Origin: Escherichia phage PLYYY01
Sequence record: MZ911962.1
Strand: one strand, 5' to 3'
DNA length: 57,025 bases
In this document: one piece after another, positions 1 to 52,302 of the stretch
How the letters are laid out: each line of letters starts with the position of its first letter
Position numbering within the stretch: the stretch's first letter is position 1
Made by a program: the position numbers and the translations under genes
The notes under the pieces: generated by a model
What the model saw: the letters and a program-made list of their open reading frames with translations, nothing else
What the model was told of the DNA's origin: nothing
The model's database searches: none

Positions 1-879
1 GTGAGCAACACAACTCCAGCAAGCGCGAAGTTTACCCCGTTTCGTGTAACGAGTTCCGGTCTGGATATTAACATTGCGACGCTGGAGTCTGAAGAACTGC
101 GTGATGACGCAGAAACCGCAGACTTCCGTCTTGGCGCTCGAAGCGTTGAAGGTACGGTAACAGGTGAAATGTCCTTCGGTACGTTTGACGACCTCATTGC
201 GGCAGCACTGCGCGGTGAATGGCAGGACAACGTCCTTAAAGGTGGTATTGTTCGCCAGTCATTTACTTTTGTAGACTATAACGCAGATCTGCCATCAGGT
301 AAATACACAATCTATCGCGGTTGTGAAGTTAACAGCATGACTTTCTCATTGTCTGCTGAAAACATGACCACAGTAGAGTTCGGCATTGTTGGTCGCTCGA
401 TGGAAATTGCGGAATCGCTCCCATCTGGTGCAACTATCAAAGACCGTACAACTACTTCACCGATGGACGGCTTCTCCGGTCGCTTGCTGGAAGGCGGTCA
501 GGAAATTAGCGTTATCACGGAAATCGGTCTTACCGTTGAAAACGATATCGCTCCGCGCTTCGTTGTCGGCTCGAAGTTCTCCATTGAACCGTCTGCTGGT
601 CGCCGTGCTGTAACTGGTACAGCTAACGTTTACTTCCTGGATAACAAACTGCGTATGAAGTATCTGGATGAAGTGGAAACTTCAATCAAGTTTGATCTGA
701 TCGACCCAAGCAATCCGGAACAAAAATACACTGTGGAAATCCCTCGCGTGAAATTCACTGAAGCTCCGCGTCCTATTGACGGTGAAGGGGATATCATGCT
801 TAATATGGGCTACCGCGGATTGCTGGACCCAACAACCGCAAGTTCCATCAAAATTACCCGCGTTTTAGCGGCAGCATAA
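1..879 (+). CDS. major tail (tube) protein
   Basis: 292-aa ORF starting with GTG at window position 1 (N-terminus could be cut by the window edge). Sits directly upstream of the chaperone and tape-measure genes in the conserved siphovirus order. No motif-level proof. Confidence 0.6.
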   Translation: MSNTTPASAKFTPFRVTSSGLDINIATLESEELRDDAETADFRLGARSVEGTVTGEMSFGTFDDLIAAALRGEWQDNVLKGGIVRQSFTFVDYNADLPSGKYTIYRGCEVNSMTFSLSAENMTTVEFGIVGRSMEIAESLPSGATIKDRTTTSPMDGFSGRLLEGGQEISVITEIGLTVENDIAPRFVVGSKFSIEPSAGRRAVTGTANVYFLDNKLRMKYLDEVETSIKFDLIDPSNPEQKYTVEIPRVKFTEAPRPIDGEGDIMLNMGYRGLLDPTTASSIKITRVLAAA

Positions 880-888
880 GGATAAGAA

Positions 889-1296
889 ATGACCGACACC
901 AAAAAAGCCAAAGTTGCAGTAGCTAAAAGCTTCCGTGATTTTAAAACTGTGAGCCGGGCAAATGATCCGGCAAACACTAAGCCTATGAATGTGGTTATTC
1001 CTGGTGTAGGCGACACTGGCGAAAAACTCTACATTCGTAGCCGCTACTGCACAGAGTATCGTGACGCAGAATTGAAAGCACAACGTCAACTGTTGGCACT
1101 TATGCAGGGTACAGACGGGGAAGTAACGGATGCTATGAAGGAAGATATCCTTACCCGTTCACTGTGTAATCTTGTAGCAGGTTGGACGTTTGACGAGCCT
1201 CCGACTGTTGACAACGTGTTTGAATTCTTAACGGAGAACCCAACTGTTCGAGAAGACCTTAACGTATTTGCCGCTAAAGATAGTAATTTTTTCTAA
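889..1296 (+). CDS. tail assembly chaperone (lambda G-like)
   Basis: 135-aa ORF with ATG at 889 preceded by AAGGA. Lies between the tail tube and tape-measure genes and ends in the slippery run TTTTTTC followed by TAA. Confidence 0.6.
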   Translation: MTDTKKAKVAVAKSFRDFKTVSRANDPANTKPMNVVIPGVGDTGEKLYIRSRYCTEYRDAELKAQRQLLALMQGTDGEVTDAMKEDILTRSLCNLVAGWTFDEPPTVDNVFEFLTENPTVREDLNVFAAKDSNFF

Positions 1297-1694
1297 AAGC
1301 GCGCAGACAGTTAATTGATAAGAAGATCCTCCAATGGGAACTAAATAGTAAAGTCCCCGGCGGGGGATCTTCTTTATTATCGCAACTGCAAAAGGTTGAG
1401 GAACAGTCTGGTAAGACGCCACCTAAGCTTAAAGAATATCGAGAAAAGGAAATACCGATTTGCTTCGAATATCTATCTACTCTATTTGATGATATTTACA
1501 CTGGAGGAGATTTTAGTTATACAGAATTGCACAGCTATCAAGTGACAATGGGCTTACATCTTCAACCGTACGAATGCGAAATACTGCGGCAGCTATGGCT
1601 TGAAAAGCGCGTGTCAGAAGCTGAACAAAATGCTAAACTCATGGAAAGTCAAATGCAAAATCAAAATAAAGGTAGAAGAAAAAGGAGAAGATAA
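889..1694 (+). CDS. tail assembly chaperone frameshift product (lambda GT-like), predicted -1 frameshift at 1287-1293
   Basis: The -1 frame is open for about 135 codons from 1287 to its TAA at 1692-1694 and has no start codon until codon 88. Heptamer T_TTT_TTC at 1287-1293 sits just before the G stop. The extension stop overlaps the tape-measure ATG (TAATG). Inverted repeat 1321-1329/1365-1373 lies downstream. Confidence 0.55.
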
Positions 1695-4600
1695 TGGCCG
1701 AAACCGCTTCGCTAGTAATCAGAGTTGACGCGAGAGGGATTAGTACCGCGGACTCTATGTTGCGGAACTTAGCGCGTACAGGTGACACAGCGGAGCGGTC
1801 TGCTCAACGTGTTACCTCCAGCTATAAAACATTGTCTAACACATCTAACGAACTTGCAACTGTCACAAGTCGTTTAGATGCTGCAATTGTAGGAATGATT
1901 AGCGTTGACACTATTAGCCGTGTTATATCGCTATCAGACTCCTGGACCATCCTTACCAACAAACTTGAACTAGCTCGTATGGGTAATGAAACCGTTGCGG
2001 ATTCCCAGCAACGTGTATTTGATATTGCCCAGCGTTCCCGTACCAGTTTAGAAGCAACTGCAACTCTGTACTCCCGTCTCCAGCGTGCAATGAAGAATAC
2101 TGGTATGACTGGTATGGAGCTTGGACGTATCACTGAAACAATTAACAAAGCGATGATTGTTTCCGGTGCAACGTCACATGAAGCAAGCGCTGCATTGATT
2201 CAGTTTTCGCAAGCGATGGCATCCGGTGTTCTGCGTGGGGATGAATTCCGCTCTGTTGCAGAACAAGCTCCGCGCTTAACTCAAATCATGTCCGATTCTT
2301 TAGGTGTTACCATTGGACAATTGCGTGAACTAGCCTACAGCGGCAAGTTAACCGCCGATGTGGTTATCAAATCGTTGTCTGGTGCTGCGGATACAATTGA
2401 TAAAGAATTTAGCCGCACTATGCCAACGTTCAACCAGCAATGGACAGTTGCAACAAACAACCTGACTAAGTTTATGGGCGAATCCCAAAAGACTCAAGGT
2501 GCTGTTGCTGCATTGGGACAGACGTTTGTTGCATTATCCGAAAACTTAGGAACGGTTGTAACGGTTGGTTCAGCTTTAGCCACAGTAATTACCGCCCGTA
2601 TCATCACGGCAATGCTGGCCAAGACTAAAGCGTCTATAGCTGCTGCAAAAGCATCTCAGATGGAAGCTGCACAGACTGCGGCAACTACTGCGGTTATGCA
2701 AAGTTCTATTGGCGTTACCGCACAGAAAGCGGCTGCGGATCGTGCCGCTTCGCTTGCAGCGTTACAGGTTGCTCGCGGGTCATTAGCGGTTGCTAAGGGC
2801 ACGGCAGCGGAAGCAGGTGCTCGTCTTGCGCTTATTAATGCTACCCGTGCCCATTCTGCGGCAATTATGGCGGACGTACAGGCGCGGCAGGCGCTCAATG
2901 CTGCTCTTAATGCAACTGTACCAGCCGCAAGCCGGGCAGCTACAGCAATGAGCGTGCTGCGCGGTGCTATGGGGTTAATTGGTGGTCCTGTTGGTGTAGC
3001 AATGCTGGCAGCGGGTGCAATTTACTCCTATAAAGCGTCGCTGGAAGCTGGTCGTGCGGAAAACAATCAGTTTGCAGATAGTGTTGATAGTGTACGCGAA
3101 AAACTGATGCAAATGACGGAAGCTCAGCTGGCAGCTAACGCTGTCAAAGCTAGAGCAATCCTTCCGGAACTTGAAGAGCAAATGAAGCGCGAGCAAACCG
3201 CTCTTAAATCTGCAACGGAAACGCAGAAGTTCTATGAAGCACAATTGAAGCGTCGAGCTGAATCCGGTCGAGATACTGCTAGTGCGGAAAAGAACTTACA
3301 GATTGCTACGGATAACGTCAAGCTAGCTGCTGAACGCGCGGAAGACGCACAACGTCGATATAACAATGTGCTTGAAATGACAAGCCCCGCTATCGAGAAG
3401 ATAATCCCGTTAGCTCGTCAGCTTGCTGCTGATATGAAGGCTGTTCTTAACATCAAATCCGGTCCGCTTATTGACGAGAAAGTTCTTGATCGTTTTAAAA
3501 CTCAGCTAGGTGACGTTAACCGTGAGATTGACGTTAACGCTGTTAAGGGTGCTGGTAATGCTCGTCAATCTGCAATCCTTAGAGGTCTGTATCAAACACT
3601 AGGTAAAGATGCAGACACCTACGGAAGTCTGATTCGCAAAGTAGCTATGGGTCAGGACGTTAGCTCAGAGGCAACAAGCGAGTCCGCTAAAGAGCTTGTT
3701 AAATATGCTCAAGATTTAGCCCAAGCTCTTGGCAAAAACTACGATCTTGAAGAAGCAGAGAGAAACCGGACTAAAGCTACAAAAGACGCTATTAAGGCAG
3801 ATCAACAAAACGCTAAGGTTATTGACGATTTACGAAACAAGCTTAACGAAGTAACCACAGGGGTTAAGGAAAACGCCAAAGCGAAAGCGCAAGCGGTAGC
3901 ACTTAATAAGCTCAATGCGTCTGCAACGGCTGCGGAAAAAGCGGAAGTTGTTAGACTTGCTGCTGCAATCTACGATGCAGAAGAAGCTCAAAAGAAACTG
4001 GACGAGCGTAAGAAGAATCGTAAGTTTGCTCAGGGTCTGTTAGATGAAGGTATGACAGACTATGAAAAAATCGCGTACGAGCAAAATACAAAGATTGCAG
4101 AGCTTAATGCAAAACAACGAGCCGATGATCTAGCTTACTATCAGCTTTACGAAGATGCTAAAACACAAGTCCTGAAGAAAGCAAGTATGGAAAGGGAAAA
4201 CCTGGATAAAGTTCTTATGAACAGGATGATATCCTTTTCTCAAGAATCGTTGGGTGTTATATTGTCAGGTCTGGAAGAAGGTGTTAGTAAACAGAACTTT
4301 ATTTATAAAGCAATGTTTGCAGCACAGAAAGCAATGCAAATTCCCTCAATTCTTGCTAACACGGAAACAGCGGCATCTGCGGCGCTTGCGTGGGGTACAC
4401 AGCAAGGCGGTGCTACAATGGGCGCAGCTATGGCTGGTATAGTAAAAGCTATGGGTTATGCGTCGGCTGCTACTGTGGGTGGCTTAGCAATTGCCGGCAT
4501 GGCACACGACGGTATTGATAATGTTCCGCGCGAAGGTACATGGTTATTGGATAAAGGTGAACGTGTACTTAATGCTCCGTCTAATGACAAGTTAAACCGC

Positions 4601-26318: not shown

Positions 26319-28301
26319 TTAGAACGGAACGTAATCTGGATCATCTGCTTGTACAGGATTAACCACATTGTTCACTGTTATACCTTGCGTATTCTGCGAA
26401 ACAATATCATCCCAGCTCACATCATCGTTATAGCTTGGACCTTCGGTTGTTCCATCTTGCCCGTATACTTTAACTTGAATAGCTTCGTCGTCCTGTGGGG
26501 CTTCAAACTTACCGAAACATGTACCATCATAATCATAGTTCAATATCTCAGGCCATTTCTTATTTGTATGAACTTTGATGTATTTCGGTGTTTTAAGCAT
26601 TGCAGCAACATCAAGAGCTTCTTCAATAGTTTGTGGTAAAGGAAGATGAGTCCTTTTCTTCCACCATGCGACCGCTTTACGACCCGCCCAGTCACCATGA
26701 AGTAGAGCTACCCATTCGCTGAATATTTTACTACCGCAATAATAAGTCACCTTCATTGTTGGAGGTTTGGAGCTGTCATTGCGTTTAGTGTGCTTCGCAT
26801 AAGTCACATGCGTAACTTTGAAGTCTTCAACTACCGGAATGTCCTGTTTGATCAGTGCTTCGGTACTTGCTGCCTTTTTAAGTTTCGTCTGGAACTTAAA
26901 CTCATGACCGCAAAATCCTTCTTTAACATAATCCGTTCCACGTAGTCTAAATCCCTTCAAATATAATTGTTGAACTTGTTCCTGTGTAACGCTGTCCATA
27001 GGAATTGGTGCAAAGCCACCACAATAGCGAGCAGATGCATGATTATACGACCCGCACACATCGCATTCTTTAACCGGAGCAGTACCAGCACCTTTTTCGC
27101 CCGGGCGCTGGGGTTTAACAGGGTCGTTAATAGGGCCCAAACGACGCGTATTACCGCTGAAATCCAGTACAAGGCAGTTCTGCTTAGGGCTTGCTGCAAT
27201 AGCTTGCAAGCGACCTTCCTGCGTGGAAAGATCAAAGCCCTCCGCATATACCGGACGCGTACCGCGACCCAACATCTGAACCCATAGCACCGCCGAGGCA
27301 GTTGGGCGAAGCATGATAATCAGATCAAGCATTGGATGGTCGAAACCTGTGGTTAAGACGTTGTTATTTGTCAGCGCTCGAAACTCTCCACGCTTGAACT
27401 TTTCAATAATCTCGTCACGCTCTTTTGCATCGAGCTTTGAGTGAATACATCCGCAACTAATACCCATATCGTTCAGCATATCACACGCATCTTTAGCGTG
27501 TTCAATACCAGAACAAAATATAAGCCAACTTTGACGGTCTTCACCACATTCAATGGCTTCCTCAAGCGCGCGGAGTGTTGCATCGTCGCGGTTCACCGCG
27601 CTTTGCAGCTCACTCTGGATAAACTCACCGCCGCGTTTACCTACCCCGTTGAGGTCCAGCTCCATCTTAGTACGCTTTGGCACAACCGGAAGCAAATAGC
27701 CTTGCTCCAGGAACCAGTTAAAGGCTTCAGGGGTAGTTGCATCAAACGTTACTTTATCAAATAAAGCATCATCGTCTTCGTTTTCCTTAACAATTGAGCC
27801 GTAACCCAGTCTGTAAGGTGTAGCGGTAAGACCGATGATTTTTAAATACGGGTTAACTTCACGCAATGCTGCAAAGAACTTCTTATACATTGTTGCATCA
27901 CGCGGACTAATAAGGTGCGCTTCATCCACAAAGATTAGATCAACCTTGCCGAACTTTTTAGGATGCTTAGCAACAGATGCAATCCCCGCAAATGTGATAA
28001 GATTATAAACTTCTTTACGCTTCAAACCTGCGCTGTAAATACCTGCTGGCGCTTCAGGCCAGACTTTCATTAATTTATCATAGTTTTGTGCAATTAACTC
28101 TTTGACGTGAGTTAACATCATTACGCGCTGGTTTGGATACCATTTATAAAGCAGATCGAGGAACCCCGCGATAACGAGCGATTTTCCTGTCCCTGTTGGT
28201 AACAGGATCAAAGGGTTCCCCGCGTTACCCTTTTCAGCATCAAAATAGCGGAATACGCTATAAACTGCTTCCTGTTGATAATCGCGGAGCTGCATAATCA
28301 A
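26319..28301 (-). CDS. DEAD/DEAH-box (SF2) DNA helicase
   Basis: 660-aa ORF with Walker A LPTGTGKS, DEAH box FVDEAHL and motif III GLTATP; C-terminal extension with a Cys pair. Confidence 0.8.
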   Translation of the reverse strand: MIMQLRDYQQEAVYSVFRYFDAEKGNAGNPLILLPTGTGKSLVIAGFLDLLYKWYPNQRVMMLTHVKELIAQNYDKLMKVWPEAPAGIYSAGLKRKEVYNLITFAGIASVAKHPKKFGKVDLIFVDEAHLISPRDATMYKKFFAALREVNPYLKIIGLTATPYRLGYGSIVKENEDDDALFDKVTFDATTPEAFNWFLEQGYLLPVVPKRTKMELDLNGVGKRGGEFIQSELQSAVNRDDATLRALEEAIECGEDRQSWLIFCSGIEHAKDACDMLNDMGISCGCIHSKLDAKERDEIIEKFKRGEFRALTNNNVLTTGFDHPMLDLIIMLRPTASAVLWVQMLGRGTRPVYAEGFDLSTQEGRLQAIAASPKQNCLVLDFSGNTRRLGPINDPVKPQRPGEKGAGTAPVKECDVCGSYNHASARYCGGFAPIPMDSVTQEQVQQLYLKGFRLRGTDYVKEGFCGHEFKFQTKLKKAASTEALIKQDIPVVEDFKVTHVTYAKHTKRNDSSKPPTMKVTYYCGSKIFSEWVALLHGDWAGRKAVAWWKKRTHLPLPQTIEEALDVAAMLKTPKYIKVHTNKKWPEILNYDYDGTCFGKFEAPQDDEAIQVKVYGQDGTTEGPSYNDDVSWDDIVSQNTQGITVNNVVNPVQADDPDYVPF

Positions 28302-29271: not shown

Positions 29272-30153
29272 TTACTGCTGCCACGGCGGGACTGCTGCTT
29301 GTGCCGGATGCGGTTCAGCTTGCTGCTGTGGCTGCGCTTGCTGCTGCGGTGCTGCTGCCTGACCCGGCTGTGCTACCTGCTGCGCCCACGGTTGCTGAGC
29401 TGCTTCCGGTGCTACTGGCTGTTGTACCGGAGCTTGCTGAACTGGCTGCTGTGGCGCTGCGTTTTGAGCAGGGTTATCCCACGGCTGCGGTGCGGCATTC
29501 TGCCACGGTTGAGCTGCTGCGCCCTGCTGCGGTGCTGGTTGCTGAACAGGCTGCTGAACTGGCTGCTGTTGTTGTACCGGAACTTGCTGTTGCACAGGCG
29601 CTTGCTGTTGCTGAGCAAACGGGTTAGCTGCTGGCTGCTGCGGTGCTGCGCCCGGGAAAGTCGGCTGCTGTGCTGGAGCACCTGCACCGAACGGGTTAGC
29701 TACTGCTGAAGCACCCATTGATGGAGCCTCTGCTGCTTTTTCTGCATACTTAACCGGATCGTTGATGTTAGCGTAACCGTTGGGCTCGTTGCTGTCTTCA
29801 TAACCTTCCTGAGAACGAACTTTCAGACGCAGGTTCAGCGGAATGTTATGCAGTTGAGCAGGAGTATCCCAGCGAATTACGCCTACTGCGTGGGAAAGTG
29901 CGCCCAGTTGCTCGTATGCGATGCGTACAGTATCTTCGTTGTCGTTAATGACGTTGTAACGAGCGAAAATCTTACGACCTTTAGCAAAACCGTCGATGAT
30001 GCTAAACGTTACCTGGATCGCCATACCGCCGTTTTTCGTCGCTTTAAACTCAGACGCTTCAATTACTGCTTTATACCAACCTTTTGGCAATGCGCCGTAA
30101 GAAGGTGCTTGATATTGGCTCGCGTCAAAGGTGAATTTAGTTGGCATAGTCAT
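29272..30153 (-). CDS. putative ssDNA-binding protein with Gln/Pro/Ala-rich C-terminal tail
   Basis: 293-aa ORF. N-terminal ~130 aa globular domain followed by ~150 aa of low-complexity QQP/APQ repeats. Position between the Sak4-like ATPase and the nuclease. Confidence 0.4.
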   Translation of the reverse strand: MTMPTKFTFDASQYQAPSYGALPKGWYKAVIEASEFKATKNGGMAIQVTFSIIDGFAKGRKIFARYNVINDNEDTVRIAYEQLGALSHAVGVIRWDTPAQLHNIPLNLRLKVRSQEGYEDSNEPNGYANINDPVKYAEKAAEAPSMGASAVANPFGAGAPAQQPTFPGAAPQQPAANPFAQQQQAPVQQQVPVQQQQPVQQPVQQPAPQQGAAAQPWQNAAPQPWDNPAQNAAPQQPVQQAPVQQPVAPEAAQQPWAQQVAQPGQAAAPQQQAQPQQQAEPHPAQAAVPPWQQ

Positions 30154-39844: not shown

Positions 39845-40673
39845 ACCTACCTCCTAACAGCACTATACACAATCCATAGTAATGCAGCCACAATTATTCC
39901 ACCTGAAGTTATGATGTGAGCGGATTGTTAATATATAACCACATGTGATGGAAAGTTTTGGGTAGGAATAGTTGGTGCTCCACAGTTTGCGCAATGTGAC
40001 CGAAAGTTTTGTGAGTTTTGCGAAGTTTTGCGAAGTTTTGTGGTGCCACTGTTGCTAAAAACTTTAATAAAAACAATAAGTTGGTGCAGTAAGTTTTTGC
40101 GTTTTGGGGTAAAACGCATTTTTACCCTAACACCCCAAATCCCGACTATTAGTAAAAAACGTATATAAATCAATAGCATAGATACTAAATGAATAGTGAT
40201 TGGAATGGGTAGAAATCCAAATGATGGAAGTGGAATAAATTATTCCTACTTGATAGAATAATGGAATCGGTACTCCAGAGCGCAAAAACCTAAAACTTTC
40301 AGTCAACAGACTAAAAACGGATAGAAACTAAAAGTTAATAAGTAATACCATAAATATATATAAAATAAGGATTTATTAGTAATGTATATAGTACATATTG
40401 GTATTATTTGAATGTTTTTGGGTCATTGTTAAAAAGTCCCAAAACTCACAAAAAGTGAAAGAATACAATTCGTGACAGGATTGTTAATGGAATATGGTGT
40501 ATGGATATACAGTATTATTCCAGATTCCGGAATAATTGGAATAATGGAATAAATTATTGAACTATTGTGATCGGAAGGTATATCAAGCTATAATGCGCTT
40601 AATCGCGGGATATTGGAGGAGGACTTTATTGCGCGGTTAACCGGACCAGTAGGAGGGCTGGCCCGGAAGTAGT
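39845..40673. promoter_or_regulatory. AT-rich intergenic region with iterons (candidate replication origin and/or early promoter cluster)
   Basis: About 830 bp without ORFs >60 aa. Tandem 10-bp units at 40001-40040. Multiple GGAAT(A) repeats, the palindrome GGAATAAATTATTCC (40232-40246) and a second copy of GGAATAAATTATT at 40546-40558. 14-bp inverted repeat TTTTGTGAGTTTTG (about 40007-40020) versus CAAAACTCACAAAA (about 40440-40453). Confidence 0.5.
40001..40040. repeat. tandem array of four ~10-bp direct repeats (consensus CGAAGTTTTG)
   Basis: cgaaagtttt-gtgagttttg-cgaagttttg-cgaagttttg read directly; a fifth copy gaaagttttg at 39951-39960. Confidence 0.8.
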
Positions 40674-41000
40674 TTAGAGCTGTACAGGTGTGAAGTGGGC
40701 TAGCGTATCGTCGGACATAATACCCGACAGTTTTTCGCTTACCCAGTCGGACCAAATGCTATCCGGTTCCTGGCGATGCACAAACCAGATTTCGGATGTG
40801 CCTTCTTTGCGCATCGGTTGCACTTCTGCAAGGAACTTGTCCTGCATAAGGCGGGTGAAGCAGACGCTGGTCATTGGAACCGGCTTTTCGTCTTTATTGT
40901 AATAAGGGACCAATATTTTATTCCCGAAGTCGGCAACTTCATAAACCGTTCCTTTTCGCAAGCCTCGGATGTCAGTGTAAGAGCGGATGAACTTTTTCAT
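40674..41000 (-). CDS. hypothetical protein
   Basis: 108-aa ORF with ATG at 41000 preceded by AAGGA. Confidence 0.45.
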   Translation of the reverse strand: MKKFIRSYTDIRGLRKGTVYEVADFGNKILVPYYNKDEKPVPMTSVCFTRLMQDKFLAEVQPMRKEGTSEIWFVHRQEPDSIWSDWVSEKLSGIMSDDTLAHFTPVQL

Positions 41001-41002
41001 AT

Positions 41003-41179
41003 TTATTTCCTTACGAACACAGAGCCTACGAATAATGTTGACTGAGTGGCAGCTTGCTCGATTAATTCGCCAACAAGCTGGGACTGGTTTAGAGGTTTAA
41101 GGCCTTCTTTGGCGCGTGCTTCATTTACACGACGTTGAAGGTCTTTTAAGTATTGAGTTGCGAAGCTATCTAATTGCAT
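41003..41179 (-). CDS. hypothetical small protein (58 aa, below ORF-track cutoff)
   Basis: ATG at 41179 preceded by AAGGA. Stop at 41003-41005 directly abuts the start of the downstream gene. Confidence 0.35.
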   Translation of the reverse strand: MQLDSFATQYLKDLQRRVNEARAKEGLKPLNQSQLVGELIEQAATQSTLFVGSVFVRK

Positions 41180-41234
41180 CTTCTTATCCTTAGGGCTCCC
41201 GCAGAAGCCCGTCAGTGAACAGTGTGGTTATAGA

Positions 41235-41909
41235 TTATGCGTCCAGGCCGTTGTATTTGCGCCAGGCGTAGAACTGAATGGCTACCGTTGTTCCGTTGTA
41301 AGAAGGCATTGCAGCTTTCATCTCTTTCAGCTCCGGCGTGCGGCCCAGCTCCTTCAGAAGCTTGTCACCCATTGCCCACACTTCGGCAGTTTTTCCTTTC
41401 AGCGGCTTGCGAGCGCCATTTTTGAAATCACAGCGAGCAGCTTTTGCATCCTGTTTTGGTGCGGCAGCTTTTGGCTCTTCAATTTTGATTTCAGAAACCT
41501 GCGTGGCAGCTTTTGCGTGTTTCATATCTTTCTCTTCCTCCTGCTCCAGAGCTTCGAGGCAGCTTTTGACAATTTCCGGATTTACCATCGGACGCAGTAC
41601 CGAGACGCTAGCAGCTGGCGCGGCGGTCGGTGCTGGGACTTTCTGCTCGGGCTTTTGCGCTTTTTCGTGATCGCGCAGAACCTGAAGGACTTCCTTTTCG
41701 ATGATGTAAAAACCGATATCGTCCTGATGGATTAACTGTTCGTGTGCGTCGCGTGCAACCTGGCCCCAGCGGGTCTTAAGAGCGCGGCGTGCATTCGTTT
41801 TCATGGTGTAGCGCATTTTGTCCTGTTCGCGGTGAGTTACTTTAGACATGGTATAGCTCCTTTCGTTAAAGTTAGTTTGCTTATTATTGCCTACCGTGAT
41901 AGTAGGCAA
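41235..41909 (-). CDS. hypothetical charged protein sharing a C-terminal domain with the 24834-25646 product
   Basis: Likely start at internal ATG 41849 (AAGGAG 7 nt upstream). Lys/Ala/Glu/Pro-rich middle. C-terminus ends FYAWRKYNGLDA, like YARWKKFNG in the other protein. Confidence 0.5.
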   Translation of the reverse strand: MPTITVGNNKQTNFNERSYTMSKVTHREQDKMRYTMKTNARRALKTRWGQVARDAHEQLIHQDDIGFYIIEKEVLQVLRDHEKAQKPEQKVPAPTAAPAASVSVLRPMVNPEIVKSCLEALEQEEEKDMKHAKAATQVSEIKIEEPKAAAPKQDAKAARCDFKNGARKPLKGKTAEVWAMGDKLLKELGRTPELKEMKAAMPSYNGTTVAIQFYAWRKYNGLDA

Positions 41910-41917
41910 GGTATAAG
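41881..41917 (-). promoter_or_regulatory. promoter-like element with dyad symmetry (minus strand)
   Basis: Minus-strand reading gives TTGCCT, a 16-17 nt spacer and A/T-rich -10-like AATAAT. The -35 is embedded in the inverted repeat TTGCCTAC-N7-GTAGGCAA. About 30 nt upstream of the 41849 start. Confidence 0.4.
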
Positions 41918-41922
41918 AAAAC

Positions 41923-42171
41923 TTATTGCACGATTGCTACGAAATCGACGGTTGCGATGTCCATGCTAGCGAAAGCAACGATGCCATAGTCGGTGTCGTG
42001 TTCGGCGGTAAACGCTTTGAGGAACTGCTGTACTGCTGCTTTATGGTTAAGCGTTACGTCGATAGTATAGTCCCAGCTATAGACTTTGCGCTTGCCAAAA
42101 CCTTTAACTGCAATGCGTGCGCCTTTGGTGTTAGTTGGTGCCAAAAATTTGGTGACGATAGAAGTAGCCAT
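41923..42171 (-). CDS. hypothetical protein
   Basis: 82-aa ORF with ATG at 42171 preceded by GAGGA. Confidence 0.45.
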   Translation of the reverse strand: MATSIVTKFLAPTNTKGARIAVKGFGKRKVYSWDYTIDVTLNHKAAVQQFLKAFTAEHDTDYGIVAFASMDIATVDFVAIVQ

Positions 42172-42200
42172 GATGTATATCCTCGTTTTGTTTAAGTTGA

Positions 42201-42239
42201 CTTATTATTGCCCAGTCGGATCAACTAGGCAAGATATAA
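42201..42239 (-). promoter_or_regulatory. second copy of the promoter-like element (minus strand)
   Basis: Shares CTTATTATTGCC...AGGCAAG(A/G)TATAA with the 41881-41917 element; same position relative to the downstream start codon. Confidence 0.4.
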
Positions 42240-42240
42240 A

Positions 42241-42453
42241 TCACTTAATTTGTACCAAATCGTATTCTTTGTAAATTTCGCTAATGTACATATCGAACTG
42301 GCCCATTAAGAAGATTTCGGCCTCCTCCCAGCTTGGGGCAGATACATAACCAGCTATTTTACCGGACGCGAGTTCCACTAATTTGAATTCCATGATGCAA
42401 CCCTTAATGTGGTTAAGCAGTATTGCTTTGTTGAAGTAATAATAGCCTTGCAT
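42241..42453 (-). CDS. hypothetical protein
   Basis: 70-aa ORF; real start may be the internal Met (MEFKLVEL) at 42393. Confidence 0.35.
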   Translation of the reverse strand: MQGYYYFNKAILLNHIKGCIMEFKLVELASGKIAGYVSAPSWEEAEIFLMGQFDMYISEIYKEYDLVQIK

Positions 42454-42714
42454 CGTGATATTGAATAGGCCAAAAGTGCTATTTTGATATTGTTTTGCAT
42501 CTAGTGAAAATTATGCTTGCCTTGCATGTTTAGCACTAATGGCCTAACTAACATCACACCATCTGGAGTATTCGCGCGGGCACACACACATACATATAAA
42601 GCTGCCAAATATTTTTATAAAAAGATGCAAAAAGGTGTAGACACATGATCGGTCTAGCACTACTATATACACATACCGCAAGGGTACTACAAATTAACTT
42701 AAAGGGTTCACATC

Positions 42715-42999
42715 ATGTCCATCGTTACTATGTCGTTCTTCGACTATTGCAATAACGAAAAACAAATTATCGTTAACCTGCAAAAAGGATCTGTTGTCGC
42801 ACGCAATGCTAACCGCCAATGCATCGCGCTAACCGATTTTGCTTTCCGGCTTAACGTGGACAACACCACCGCCAAAAATATCGTTCACGATACGGCGATG
42901 GAAGCCGCTCATGCTGCGAAGGATAAAGGTATCCGCGCAGCACGCGAAATCATGCACAAAGCGCTCGGCATCACGTTCTTCGTTGGCATTAAGGGGTAA
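42715..42999 (+). CDS. hypothetical protein
   Basis: 94-aa ORF, first plus-strand gene after the divergent AT-rich region 42454-42714. Confidence 0.4.
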   Translation: MSIVTMSFFDYCNNEKQIIVNLQKGSVVARNANRQCIALTDFAFRLNVDNTTAKNIVHDTAMEAAHAAKDKGIRAAREIMHKALGITFFVGIKG

Positions 43000-43447
43000 C
43001 TACTATGGCACGCAAATACTCGCTTACACGCGCGCAGCACGCGCTATTATTGCAGGTTATGCGCATGGAGTACGAGGAGACTACATGGGCGCAGGCTATG
43101 CAAACTGGGCGCGAGTTCTACGCGCAATTAATAGCACAAAATGCCTAGACAACATGATCGGTCTGGTGGATACTACACACATCAACCAAACAACGGGGGT
43201 AAACAAAATGCGTAGTTTCAAATGTGTAAGCGTAAACGATAATGCTAAGGCTAGTGCTAAGGGTCTGTTCACAGTAGGTAATGTGTATGACTTCAACATG
43301 GAAAGTTATATACACATGACCCTCACGGGCGTAATGTTCGGCGACGTTGGTGCGGTGCGCTGCGAATTAAACAAGTACACGGAAAAGGAATATGCTCTTA
43401 TCAGCCGCTACACGGGCGAGCCGTTAGCTGTGTTCCATGCAGCTTAA

Positions 43448-43881
43448 GCTATAACGCACACAGCGCCACGCTAGCGAGCTAATGCACAAAGGTAATGGTA
43501 ATGCATTAGCTCGGGCGAAACAGGCGCACAGCGTCGCGCACAGCTCGCACAGCGCACACCGACCCACGCAGGCCCAGCCTCGCGACCCCACCCATCCTTT
43601 TCCAGGTACTTGGATCGCTGGGGCGTGCCCTATCCATCCTGATAGTAAGTCCACGCCTAAATCTCACCCATCACATAGCCTATCCACCTACATCCATGAC
43701 CCCACCTACCTTCTTTTTGAATATATTGCGCTCATCCTTTCTAAATATATGGATTTTGGTAGTAAATTCTAAGTCGTCAACGTATAATTCGTCTTGTAGC
43801 TACTCCATAGCTACCATCTTTAAGCGGATGCGACCAATTTCTATCAATTCTTACCAGTTTTAGAGCATCAAGGAGGTATTT
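43448..43881. promoter_or_regulatory. non-coding region with a long palindrome and GC-rich short repeats
   Basis: 11-bp perfect inverted repeat GAGCTAATGCA / TGCATTAGCTC at 43476-43512. Repeated CGCACAG units around 43520-43560. C-rich repeats (TATCCATCC, TATCCACCTACATCCATGACCCCACCTACC). Palindrome GTAGCTA-N5-TAGCTAC about 43797-43815. Confidence 0.4.
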
Positions 43882-44139
43882 ATGTGCGACTCCAGTGCAA
43901 GCACCACGACAAACTCCTCCAGCAATGTGGTTACAGAGGTAAATGCAATGCGATTAGGTCCATATCGCGGCTATTATGGTCGTGCTGCATGGAATGACGC
44001 TACTCAACGTTTTGAAGGCTGGATTATCTGCCCGGAACGTGTTAAATTTCACTCCGTAAAAGAGAAAAATATCGTTCTTAATTTTCAAAAATGTGTCACT
44101 AAATATGTAGAGGAGCAAGAAGAATGTCTTATCAATTAG
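43882..44139 (+). CDS. hypothetical early protein
   Basis: 85-aa ORF with AAGGAGG before the ATG. Confidence 0.45.
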   Translation: MCDSSASTTTNSSSNVVTEVNAMRLGPYRGYYGRAAWNDATQRFEGWIICPERVKFHSVKEKNIVLNFQKCVTKYVEEQEECLIN

Positions 44140-44480
44140 CATTAGAAGCTGCTGGATGCGAAGTATTAGATTTTGTTGAGTTTGGTTGTTATCAGGGTGA
44201 ATGGCTTGCCCTGATAAGAAAAGATGGTGTATTGGGGGTTTGTGAAGGTTCTTATGGATCGTGCTCGGGTTGTGATTCATTTGAAGCTGAATTTGGCTGG
44301 CATAATGAGGAAAGTCCCGATTATCAGAAACGTCTTGCTGAATTTGGTGAAAGTTACTTACCAGCTAACAGCTTTGAAGAAATGATCGCCAAACTTCAAA
44401 AGGATGTTGAGAATTATGATTGGGATGACGATTATAAATCTATGTTAGAAACTGTTCGTCAATGGCAGAAAAATATATAA
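44124..44480 (+). CDS. hypothetical protein with Cys cluster
   Basis: 118-aa ORF; CxxC-like pairs (GCYQ, CSGCDS). Confidence 0.4.
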   Translation: MSYQLALEAAGCEVLDFVEFGCYQGEWLALIRKDGVLGVCEGSYGSCSGCDSFEAEFGWHNEESPDYQKRLAEFGESYLPANSFEEMIAKLQKDVENYDWDDDYKSMLETVRQWQKNI

Positions 44481-47070: not shown

Positions 47071-47277
47071 ATGGAAACTCCATTGGCTAAACAAATGATA
47101 GAGCGTGCTGATCGGGACGGTTTGTCCGAAGACCATGCTATGCGTCGAACTGCACAAGCGTTTGACGAAATTAGCGTTAATTACGCTATGGGAAAGAGCA
47201 CGCCTAAAGGCTTACTGGGCGCATGGGCTCGCGCTCGTCGCTGCTGGTGCAACTACACCGGAGAACCGCTTGTATGA
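47071..47277 (+). CDS. hypothetical protein
   Basis: 68-aa ORF; stop overlaps the next start (ATGA). Confidence 0.35.
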   Translation: METPLAKQMIERADRDGLSEDHAMRRTAQAFDEISVNYAMGKSTPKGLLGAWARARRCWCNYTGEPLV

Positions 47278-47696
47278 TTAAACATGTCAAACAGCCAACT
47301 TTAAATACATGCGTTTCTGCGTGTTTGGCAATGATCCTTAATAAACCTGTTGAGAAGGTGATTGAGGAATTTCATAGTCGTGATTATAACAACTGGGAAA
47401 TCACTATCAGCGAATATTTGACTAAAAACGGCGTCCAGCATCATTGTTCAGAAGGTGGTGGGCGCGAAACTTTGCATATGGGAGGTTTGTTCCTGTGCAC
47501 GGTGCCAAGTCTTAATATTCCGGGCGCATTGCACCAGATTGTGATTGATATGACAGATCACAAGTTTATTGTGCATGATCCAATTAAAGGATGGGAAGGT
47601 AAAAAGTTCTATGTTGGTCCGGATCAAGATCCTGAAGAGCCTGGAGCTTTTATCATTCATACTTGGGTCAAAGACGTTGAAATCCTACCTTATTAA
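47274..47696 (+). CDS. C39-like (papain-fold) cysteine peptidase
   Basis: Start at ATG 47274. Motif QPTLNTCVSACLAMIL matches the C39 catalytic Cys region. Downstream HQIVIDMTDHKFIVHDP matches the His/Asp region. Confidence 0.5.
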   Translation: MIKHVKQPTLNTCVSACLAMILNKPVEKVIEEFHSRDYNNWEITISEYLTKNGVQHHCSEGGGRETLHMGGLFLCTVPSLNIPGALHQIVIDMTDHKFIVHDPIKGWEGKKFYVGPDQDPEEPGAFIIHTWVKDVEILPY

Positions 47697-50207: not shown

Positions 50208-50765
50208 ATGAACGGGGCAAGTCAAGAGCAATATGATCGTGACTGGACGAACTATATCCAGTATGCAAATAGCTTGTCCGCTGACGAGATGGCAATACGT
50301 GACAAAGTTGTTGCTGAGTATATGTTCGACTACAATTGGACTAACGCTTGCATGAGATGCGGGTTCAATGCTATGTTTGCACAGGAGCTTGGCCAACGCT
50401 TTGCCACGGACTGTTACGTTCGATGGAAGCTCAAGGAGATTGAAAGATCCCGTGTTCAACGTACTTCTGAGCAAGCTAACATTGAAGCAGACCTTGAGCG
50501 TCAGCATATCATTGAAGCATTAAAACGTGAAGCTCATTATACAGGACCGGGATCTTCTCAAGCTGCTAGAGTAGCTGCATTGGGCAAGCTTGCACAAATT
50601 TATGATTTGGATGCGCCCAAGAAGGCTAAAATTGATGTTACTAACAGAGGCGGCGTAATGATAGTCCCTGCTGTAGCAAATATTGACGAATGGGAAAAAA
50701 CTGCATCCGAGTCTCAACAACGACTAGTTAAAGAGACTGAAGATGGAGCTAAACCGACAACCTGA
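50208..50765 (+). CDS. terminase small subunit
   Basis: 185-aa ORF directly upstream of and overlapping the large terminase gene; assignment by position. Confidence 0.5.
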   Translation: MNGASQEQYDRDWTNYIQYANSLSADEMAIRDKVVAEYMFDYNWTNACMRCGFNAMFAQELGQRFATDCYVRWKLKEIERSRVQRTSEQANIEADLERQHIIEALKREAHYTGPGSSQAARVAALGKLAQIYDLDAPKKAKIDVTNRGGVMIVPAVANIDEWEKTASESQQRLVKETEDGAKPTT

Positions 50766-52302
50766 TAACATGCCGCGAGTAGTCTGGAAGCCACATCCAG
50801 GTTCACAGACGCTCGCTTTATCCTGTCCTGCTGATATCATTTTATACCACGGTACTCGCGGTCCTGGAAAGACGGACTGTCAGCTTATGCGTTTCCGTAA
50901 GAATGTTGGCGTAGGGTACGGTAAATTCTGGAAGGGTATTATATTCGACCGTGAATATAAAAACCTTGATGACCTTGTAACTAAGTCACAGCGTTGGTTT
51001 CCTGAATTTAAAGACGGTGCTAAATTCCTTAGTTCCAAGTCTGATTATAAATGGGTTTGGCCTACTGGGGAAGAATTGCTGTTCCGTGTTGCTTGCAAAG
51101 AAAAGGATTATTGGTCTTATCATGGTCACGAATACCCGTTTATCGGATGGAACGAATTAACAAAGTATCCGGACGGGCGTTTGTTTGAAGCAATGATGTC
51201 CTGTAACCGTTCATCCTTCCTACCCGAAGATAATCCAATTATCAATCCGGACGGTACTGTTACATATTTACCAGACATTCCTCTGGAAGTGTTTGCTACC
51301 AGTAACCCGTTTGGTGCGGGGCATAACTGGGTTAAGAAACGCTTCATTGACGCTGCACCGATGGGTAAGATACTCAGGAAAACTACGCGAGTGTTTAACC
51401 CGCGGACGCAGAAAGAGGAAGATGTGGTTACGACGCAATGTCATATCTTCGGATCTTACCGTGAGAACAAAAACCTAAGTCCGAAATATATTGCAGAGCT
51501 TATGTCTATCACAGACCCGAACAAACGCGCTGCATGGTTGGGCGGTAGCTGGGATATCACCTCCGGTGGTATGTTCGATGATCTGTGGCGTAGCACTGTT
51601 CATAAAATACGTCCATTTCCAATTCCTTCAAGCTGGAAGATTACACGTTCTTTCGACTGGGGTTCTTCAAAACCATTCTCTGTTGGCTGGTGGGCTATTA
51701 GTGATGGTTCGGATGTTGTACGTGAAGATGGTACTACATTCTCTACTGTTCGCGGTGACTTATTCCGTATTAACGAGTGGTACGGCACTAACGGTAAAAC
51801 AAACGAAGGTCTACATTTGCTGGACTCAGAGATTGCAAGCGGTATACTGGAGCGGGAATTGGCCTGGGGTATACACGATCGTGTAGTTCCTGGACCTGCG
51901 GATAACTCTATTTGGGATCTGGAGAACAATAACTCTACCGCCGCAACAATGGCGAAGAAAATCCGTCTTAACGGCAAGCTGTATAACGGCATCCATTGGA
52001 AGAGAAGTGATAAATCTGCTGGGTCGCGTAAACGCGGATGGCAGAAAATGCGTGAGTTTCTTAAAGCTGCATTGCGGGAAGATGCAAACGGTAAGCCTTT
52101 GCCGGGACCACGTGAAAATCCAGCAATGTATGTTTTCGATAACTGCAATTATTTCTTTGAACTTGTTCCAAGTCTTCCGCGCGATGAAGTAGATCAGGAC
52201 GACGTTGATACGGAATGTGAAGACCATATGGGCGATGAAGTACGTTATATGGTTCTGGATCAAGCTGTTTATACAGGTGTCGGTAAAACTATCGGTATTT
52301 AA
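50743..52302 (+). CDS. terminase large subunit
   Basis: 519-aa ORF with Walker A GTRGPGKTD and C-terminal nuclease-like acidic motifs. Confidence 0.85.
   Translation: MELNRQPDNMPRVVWKPHPGSQTLALSCPADIILYHGTRGPGKTDCQLMRFRKNVGVGYGKFWKGIIFDREYKNLDDLVTKSQRWFPEFKDGAKFLSSKSDYKWVWPTGEELLFRVACKEKDYWSYHGHEYPFIGWNELTKYPDGRLFEAMMSCNRSSFLPEDNPIINPDGTVTYLPDIPLEVFATSNPFGAGHNWVKKRFIDAAPMGKILRKTTRVFNPRTQKEEDVVTTQCHIFGSYRENKNLSPKYIAELMSITDPNKRAAWLGGSWDITSGGMFDDLWRSTVHKIRPFPIPSSWKITRSFDWGSSKPFSVGWWAISDGSDVVREDGTTFSTVRGDLFRINEWYGTNGKTNEGLHLLDSEIASGILERELAWGIHDRVVPGPADNSIWDLENNNSTAATMAKKIRLNGKLYNGIHWKRSDKSAGSRKRGWQKMREFLKAALREDANGKPLPGPRENPAMYVFDNCNYFFELVPSLPRDEVDQDDVDTECEDHMGDEVRYMVLDQAVYTGVGKTIGI

Follow-up and report, generated by a model that had tools for sequence, protein, structure and literature searches.

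The genome of Escherichia phage PLYYY01 (sequence record MZ911962.1), a 57-kb coliphage of the genus Seuratvirus (Queuovirinae) that lies near CSP1, KS_A8, KS_W4, Seurat and CAjan, was analysed as a single stretch of 57,025 nucleotides (hereafter the window). Between a plus-strand gene that ends at 43447 and the next, which starts at 43882, it contains a 434-nt gap (43448-43881) filled with GC-rich repeats, palindromes and C-rich tracts, raising the question of what such a block is for. A first-pass annotation, made from the letters alone, had offered a regulatory region, a small RNA or a packaging site as possible answers. We consider it probable (at roughly 0.8) that the block is the Seuratvirus genome terminus together with its terminase-recognition region; sites of this kind are known in the sister genus, Nonagvirus, and we found no description of one for Seuratvirus.

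Two deposited genomes end at the same nucleotide of the block

Support for the packaging site comes from putative virion ends in the records of two relatives, and a control from the sister genus bears this reading out. In ECP2304 (OR880647, 63,590 bp) the first 3,695 bp recur exactly as a direct repeat at the other end (record 1-3695 = 59,896-63,590), and Hafnia phage yong3 (OM868075, 62,823 bp) has an exact 3,424-bp terminal duplication (1-3424 = 59,400-62,823), repeat identity being 100% as compared over 2,591 nt in ECP2304 and 2,524 nt in yong3. The ECP2304 record stops after ...GAGGGCCCTT, where its internal copy goes on ATCCATCCTGATAGTA; that of yong3 stops after ...GGGTTGGGAT, where its internal copy goes on GTCCATCCTGATAGTA. 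Both right ends fall on the same aligned nucleotide, 1 nt before the motif TCCATCCTGATAGTA, equivalent to the junction between 43631 and 43632 of the window. The two genomes were deposited independently, and we estimate the chance of their right ends coinciding at ~1 in 60,000. A metagenome contig of approximately repeat length (MAVE01000110.1, 3,442 nt) stops 7 nt short of the same putative cut. The last 140 nt of this contig (3303-3442; window 40283-40422) are inverted with respect to the rest, either as a fold-back artefact at a physical end or as a real inversion.

Counts of read starts and run-off sequencing have placed the terminase cut of Nonagvirus 9g (NC_024146) at nt 28243 (PMC5567051; PMC4276943), which provides a control for reading ends from records. 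The HdK1 record (Nonagvirus) ends ...GCCGCGGGGCGGCTC, exactly at the mapped 9g cut, and both HdK1 and HdSG1 (also Nonagvirus) carry the left flank of that cut twice. From the two record ends and the 9g control we infer that the block contains a physical virion DNA end, at which 43631 would be the last base of the right-hand repeat and 43632 the first base of unique DNA.

A single-copy conserved core surrounds the putative cut

The block was found in ~35 phage records at 86-97% identity, with remoter matches in Salmonella phage STP-SP5 (68%) and in yong3 (~75% over the core). It is kept despite differing upstream genes (in CAjan, KS_A3, SA126VB, SHIN8, STP-SP5 and yong3); in the alignments, conservation starts directly 3' of the upstream stop codon with the left boundary GCTATAACGCACACAGCGCC... 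(43448-43474, on the plus strand, as are the features below unless stated), and in STP-SP5 it stops ahead of a different downstream N-terminus. The equivalent of 43448-43474 forms a small hairpin in STP-SP5 and yong3 (GCGCTGT..ACAGYGC). Common to every genome are ATAACGCACACAGC, a hairpin, GACCCSACCYA, GGTACT (AGTACT in SA80RD), TCCATCCTGATAGTA, AAATCT.AC and CCCCACCYACC, and the universally kept core motifs are each single-copy in the window.

The putative cut sits in the middle of this universal core, with a C-rich box on either side; the two boxes are 114 nt apart. Box 1 (GACCCCACCCATCCTTTT, 43584-43601) has the core GACCCSACCYA in 25/25 aligned sequences and is followed by CCAGGTACTTGG (43602-43613), whose GGTACT is near-invariant, occupying positions 166-171 without variation in a 17-phage alignment and departing from this form only in SA80RD (1/25). 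The best-conserved stretch of the block, TCCATCCTGATAGTA (43633-43647), begins 1 nt into the unique side of the cut; 13/15 of its positions are invariant across 25 sequences, Salmonella STP-SP5 and Hafnia yong3 included, and it is single-copy in the window with up to 2 mismatches allowed. Beyond it the alignments show a conserved AAATCTCACC (43659-43668) and then box 2 (GACCCCACCTACCTTCTT, 43698-43715).

No match to the block was found in 5,426 complete E. coli genomes, and the block is therefore not host-derived. Searches for remote homologues added little: two motif scans of IMG/VR returned mostly chance matches and three Seuratvirus contigs of known type, a scan of GTDB genomes returned chance matches only, and exact-protein look-ups of the flanking genes yielded one internal Logan contig that carries no information on ends.

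Two other segments of the block are replaceable

The first-pass annotation had drawn attention to CGCACAG-type repeats, and these are present, with GCGCACAGC at 43524 and 43536, TCGCACAGC at 43545 and GCACACAGC at 43456; the GC-rich direct repeats of the GCGCACAGC type occupy 43523-43569 at a spacing of 9-12 nt, within the putative terminal repeat. CGCACAG itself has 10 copies in the window (both strands), 3/10 of them within a single 30-nt stretch of the block. In at least eight Seuratvirus records (carriers being SA126VB, SHIN8, Skure, Dru_SM1, ECP2304, SLUR25/63 and GottfriedDienst) ~225 nt of different sequence stand in place of the GCGCACAGC block. The alternative spans window 43515-43626 and homology is back at 43627, ~5 nt from the putative cut, so that the mosaic breakpoint would coincide with the genome end. 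The retrieved records of E. coli Seuratviruses share a terminase small subunit (TerS) at 99.5-100% identity, the aligned part of the Greed protein standing at 98.9%. We considered the GCGCACAGC repeats as the element that confers TerS specificity and rejected this, TerS being identical in phages with and without them. Since they can be replaced while TerS stays unchanged, the GC-rich repeats are not the recognition element and appear to be accessory, not essential.

The right-hand segment is equally exchangeable. A promoter and an HNH homing-endonuclease gene stand in for window 43694-43923 in WildeMaa, phiG7, Dru_SM1, Skure and SA80RD; C-rich box 2 is retained even in these five genomes. The gene is 474 bp long, has its own extended -10 promoter (TGCTAAAAT), and belongs to a cassette that starts directly after C-rich box 2 and also replaces the first 14 codons of the downstream gene. 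Because such cassettes take its place in five genomes, the AT-rich right third of the block (43716-43881, in unique DNA) is dispensable in cis. It holds a promoter-like TATAAT (43783-43788), a promoter-like TTGACG-16-CAAAAT on the minus strand (43780-43753), an invariant CATCTTTAAGCGGATG (43815-43830) and the AGGAGG ribosome-binding site of the gene at 43882; it is probably the promoter, leader and ribosome-binding site for that gene and nothing more. Counts from a promoter and terminator scan lay inside shuffle expectation.

Composition and repeats of the block

The features first noted in the block are all present, with small corrections only. The inverted repeat is perfect and has the 15-nt spacer described, its arms being 12 bp (43475-43486 and 43502-43513) rather than the 11 bp reported; with an expectation by chance of ~8e-4 per 434 nt (our estimate), it lies far above chance. 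It forms a hairpin, CGAGCTAATGCA - 15 nt - TGCATTAGCTCG (43475-43513), with GGTAATGGTAAT in the loop and a folding z of -4.1 against shuffled sequences. The C-rich repeated units correspond to GACCCCACCCATCCTTTT (43584) and GACCCCACCTACCTTCTT (43698), with CACCCATC, CCTATCCA and CCACCTAC occurring twice each; ACCCNACC occurs three times in the window, two of these being boxes 1 and 2. The 7-bp palindrome (GTAGCTA/TAGCTAC, 43796-43802 and 43808-43814) is likewise there, roughly at chance level alone, imperfect in most relatives and missing from five genomes.

The deviant composition is borne out in that the C-over-G skew of the block is the genome's most extreme whether measured over 80, 100, 150 or 200 nt (43539-43738 has 80 C and 31 G, 43634-43713 has 34 C and 6 G), and the genome's top 100-nt GC content (0.70) is found in the segment starting at 43531. 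Second in GC (0.66-0.68 per 100 nt) comes 29278-29700, inside the minus-strand replication and modification block. In the AT-rich segment 3' of the GCGCACAGC repeats there is a 14-mer repeat, CTTTTTGAATATAT / CTTTCTAAATATAT.

Alternative readings of the block

That the block encodes one or more small proteins, from an open reading frame (ORF) on the plus strand at 43482-43772 (96 aa) or 43696-43863 (55 aa), or from one of ~42-55 aa on the minus strand, is hardly credible. Such ORFs are open in many close relatives and annotated in several GenBank records (the minus-strand one in CSP1C, Greed and OddieOddie), yet the annotators disagree, reporting no ORF, a plus-strand ORF of 59-208 aa or a minus-strand ORF of 42 aa. 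The ORF inventory of 17 relatives shows that 1- and 2-nt indels break every candidate frame in some of them; in each of the six frames, the codon changes in the most divergent pairs are very largely non-synonymous (21 against 3 synonymous in one case); in the window the minus-strand ORF has only five codons (M-V-A-M-E) before a stop, and in CAjan it carries a frameshift; and the block-internal ORFs match no Pfam or PHROG family, although the neighbouring gene does (phrog_24875). The block is non-coding. The first-pass annotation had thought as much of the 96-aa ORF, and the protein-level conservation that it named as the sign of a coding function was not found in relatives; the frameshifts, the lack of any synonymous excess and the absence of a protein family all agree. 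Gene calls across the block in the GenBank relatives, which include Seurat gp70 (126 aa), a 208-aa call in KS_W4 (fused with the next gene), a 171-aa call in KurtStettler (overlapping the next gene) and CSP1C_074 (42 aa, minus strand), with none in slur01, SLUR75, RCIP0359 and STP-SP5, are probably all spurious. A structured non-coding or small RNA, made from the plus strand or from the minus-strand promoter-like pair at 43780-43753, is highly improbable too. The 43475-43513 hairpin does have compensatory stem changes in STP-SP5 (which keeps a 10-bp hairpin with a similar loop and the inner stem GCCC/GGGC in place of ATGCA/TGCAT) and a G.U pair in the plus sense in most relatives, the whole-block fold has z = -2.2 on the plus strand, and phages of E. 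coli, Salmonella and Hafnia alike keep the -35/-10-like pair on the minus strand. Against these stand a minus-strand fold at z = -1.1, the loss of the minus-strand promoter from the five cassette-bearing genomes, and the lack of a following terminator on either strand. Scanned against Rfam with E up to 10, 42400-44400 gave chance matches outside the block only, no tRNA or tmRNA was found, and consensus folding of the 25-sequence core by RNAalifold reached -3.4 kcal/mol (plus) and -5.7 kcal/mol (minus) with 0-1 compensatory pairs per strand, so that the small RNA first suggested finds no backing on either strand. Within the block only the 43475-43513 hairpin looks selected as structure (yong3 has an unrelated hairpin at this position), and it is not an intrinsic terminator because no U-tract follows. 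A site acting at the level of DNA fits these results, because the block is non-coding, its core has no conserved RNA structure and Rfam is empty.

Rho-dependent termination is a possible but unlikely account of the block: C-rich, unstructured plus-strand RNA 3' of the stop at 43447 would load Rho and end early transcription, and, with no greater likelihood, the trimmed 3' end would owe its stability to the upstream hairpins and transcription would start again from a new promoter in the AT-rich part. The excess of C over G in 43634-43713 is opposite in sign to the skew of the neighbouring plus-strand genes, and the segment resembles a rut site in being untranslated, C-rich, G-poor and weakly structured over at least ~80 nt in the sense of transcription; stable hairpins without a U-tract lie directly upstream, promoter-like sequences lie downstream, and the replacing cassettes bring a strong extended -10. 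Rho-loading sites require composition, not specific sequence, and this reading leaves unexplained why 13 positions of a 15-mer are invariant, why phages of three host genera keep single-copy motifs and why two record ends coincide. A Rho-loading role could coexist with a terminus, for example by insulating the early transcription unit of the repeat, and of the regulatory region in the first-pass annotation what may stand is such an additional role, suggested by the C-rich, G-poor tract and the promoter-like right third; as the primary function it is not borne out. An origin of DNA replication, in which GC-rich iteron-like repeats adjoin an AT-rich unwinding region, is very unlikely. The single-copy, conserved, non-coding nature of the block, the AT-rich segment with its 14-mer repeat after the GCGCACAGC repeats, and a minimum of cumulative GC skew near 40-44 kb would suit it, but both of its parts are dispensable (at least eight records have other sequence for the repeats, and five genomes for the AT-rich part), the 9-12 nt spacing is unlike that of iterons, the skew minimum falls at the switch of gene orientation, matches resembling DnaA boxes are not conserved, and the record ends are left unexplained. 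Readings of the C-rich motifs as DnaA boxes, IHF sites or G-quadruplexes were judged by eye and discarded, the matching bases not being the conserved ones. It is also quite unlikely that the coincident record ends are artefacts of assembly or deposition and that the block does something else. The yong3 record is labelled circular, no description of methods for ECP2304 or yong3 was found in the literature, and the SLUR75 record starts near the block purely through a 127-nt assembler overlap (a start that we had entertained as a terminus and set aside on this ground); overlaps of 3.4-3.7 kb, however, far exceed k-mer artefacts, two unrelated submissions have one and the same end point in a genome of 60 kb, record ends read in this way recover the experimentally mapped 9g cut, and an independent contig of repeat length ends 7 nt away.

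A model for cutting and packaging at the block

The gene map of the window agrees with that of its relatives. Terminase and structural genes on the plus strand are followed by a long minus-strand block of replication and deazaguanine-modification genes, then by the divergent promoter region (42454-42714) and a run of small plus-strand genes that leads back to terS. The first-pass annotation had put the block at the head of a plus-strand early operon, which is wrong: plus-strand genes start at 42715 and three small ones precede the block. The presumed enzyme for the site is encoded by the small (terS, 50208-50765, plus strand) and large (50743-52302, plus strand) terminase subunit genes, terS lying 6.6 kb downstream of the block. 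The gene directly downstream (43882-44139) is the phrog_24875 member, of unknown function; CSP1C labels it 'RNA-binding protein Hfq', a label for which our Pfam search gave no match.

On the terminus reading, terminase would recognise the single-copy core (43584-43715) on concatemeric replicated DNA by way of the two C-rich boxes (GACCCSACCYAYC) placed around GGTACT and TCCATCCTGATAGTA, and would cleave between 43631 and 43632 to generate the right end of the virion chromosome. Packaging would then proceed leftward from the cut, by analogy with 9g, and the outcome would be a ~3.4-kb direct terminal repeat (~40233-43631) that bears the first early genes as well as the divergent early promoters. 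Inside this repeat would lie the left half of the block, comprising two hairpins and the GCGCACAGC repeats, and in unique DNA its AT-rich right third. We infer the binding of terminase to the core motifs, the direction of packaging and a sequence-defined left end.

The left end is tentative. Position 1 of ECP2304 corresponds to window 40233, and a repeat delimited in this way (40233-43631) would hold the divergent early promoters at 42454-42714, the first early genes on both strands and the 184 leftmost nt of the block. The motif GATAGAA-N10-GGTAC lies ~20 nt inside the left ends of ECP2304 and yong3 and is common to these two and the window only. The position falls in a second AT-rich untranslated gap (window 40180-40590), with the palindrome GGAATAAATTATTCC at the ECP2304 end; sequence left of 40283 varies among Seuratvirus subgroups.

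Several observations weigh against the proposal of a terminus and terminase-recognition site. The terminus is read from how two GenBank records were deposited, and our literature search found no paper that gives Seuratvirus termini and none on how the ECP2304 or yong3 ends were set (according to the literature, PhageTerm failed for Seuratvirus phiHS1). Neither nhmmer, run with every filter off, nor blastn-short detected significant homology to the pac region of 9g, and the link to the 9g site would be one of position and architecture only. The bases directly left of the cut are poorly conserved, the site is unusually distant from the terminase genes, and in the region of the putative left end other Seuratvirus subgroups differ in sequence. 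The exclusion as recognition element of the GC-rich GCGCACAGC block, which had first drawn attention, likewise counts against the proposal.

Comparison with known packaging sites

The terminase genes of 9g lie several kb downstream of its cut, which is placed in an untranslated region of ~600 bp that also has divergent promoters; its packaging runs leftward with ~3 kb of terminal redundancy, which the authors read as headful (PMC4276943, PMC5567051). The two sites are syntenic, 9g gp37 matching window 41241-41513 (minus) and gp42 matching 47277-47687 (plus). Both phages belong to the Queuovirinae, and in both the site occupies an untranslated region between gp37-like (minus) and gp42-like (plus) genes, located 4.7 kb (9g) or 6.6 kb (window) upstream of terS, with the cut (putative in the window) as the right end of the chromosome and a repeat of ~3.4 kb. 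In each, a C-rich 10-mer flanks the cut on both sides (TCACCTCACC, 111 nt apart, in 9g; GACCCCACC, 114 nt apart, in the window) and an ATAGTAA motif lies close to it. Given that the spacing on the right varies between Seuratviruses, the resemblance of the 10-mers is no more than suggestive. The 9g site differs in lying within the divergent promoter region, where three small genes intervene in the window, and in its 21-bp repeats with the core SRYCRCGGGRCG, which are absent from the window site. These 9g repeats (GTGCCGGAAATACCAGGTAAC; three direct copies with 26-27 nt spacing between two predicted divergent promoters) look operator-like, and the Seuratvirus divergent region (window 42454-42714) has no equivalent of them.

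Among better-known systems, phages of the T5 type ('DTR long' in PhageTerm) also have an exact kilobase-scale repeat at both ends. The terminal repeat of T5 contains the first genes to enter the host and be expressed, and the putative repeat described here similarly bears divergent early promoters and first early genes; it differs in size (3.4-3.7 kb against ~10 kb), in lineage and in an unrelated terminase, and the recognition sequences at T5 ends are too poorly defined for comparison. The cos site of lambda (cosQ-cosN-cosB) offers a parallel as a composite, single-copy terminase site of ~130-200 bp with conserved sub-sites on both sides of the cut, but it adjoins the terminase genes and produces 12-nt cohesive ends with no redundancy, whereas 6.6 kb separate the Seuratvirus site from terS and the duplications in the records measure 3.4-3.7 kb, so that a cos mechanism does not fit.

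Headful pac sites (P22, SPP1, P1) share short repeated motifs flanking a defined initiation cut, and terminally redundant DNA; they usually lie in or beside terS, and their termination cuts are imprecise. The Nonagvirus repeats behave differently, measuring 3367 bp in HdK1 and 3363 bp in HdSG1 though the unit genomes differ by 460 bp, so that repeat length appears to track sequence and not capsid capacity. Between ECP2304 and yong3, the longer repeat is found in the longer genome. In 9g virion DNA 33-50% of site copies were estimated to be cut (PMC5567051), a fraction that a repeat model accommodates because it predicts one cut and one uncut copy per chromosome, and direct terminal repeats have been determined experimentally for the Pseudomonas Queuovirinae phage iggy (PMC10484667). 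Sequence-defined fixed repeats therefore fit better than headful filling, the left end being tentative, and the published headful packaging of 9g may really be the production of fixed long terminal repeats.

Implications for the genus and its relatives

A broader and more tentative proposal, which we would back at clearly less than even odds, joins these strands for both genera. Seuratvirus and Nonagvirus would make sequence-defined direct terminal repeats of 3.4-3.7 kb, not pac/headful ends; the right boundary would be set by a bipartite, conserved site kilobases from the terminase genes, in which C-rich boxes spaced by ~110 nt enclose the cut; the repeat would act as a T5-like 'first-entry' module with divergent early promoters; and the C-rich tract at the boundary would double as a Rho-loading insulator against early transcription entering the late genes or leaving the chromosome end.

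If the terminus assignment is true, it would supply physical ends for a whole genus of coliphages that are therapeutic candidates. More than 30 deposited Seuratvirus genomes are arbitrarily permuted, and most lack the 3.4-kb repeat and have spurious gene calls over the block. A defined terminus and a minimal recognition core of ~130 nt would be useful for the rebooting of synthetic genomes, for judging transduction risk, for interpreting coverage and for annotation. The comparison also suggests that the 'pac/headful' model of 9g deserves re-examination as a fixed-repeat mechanism.

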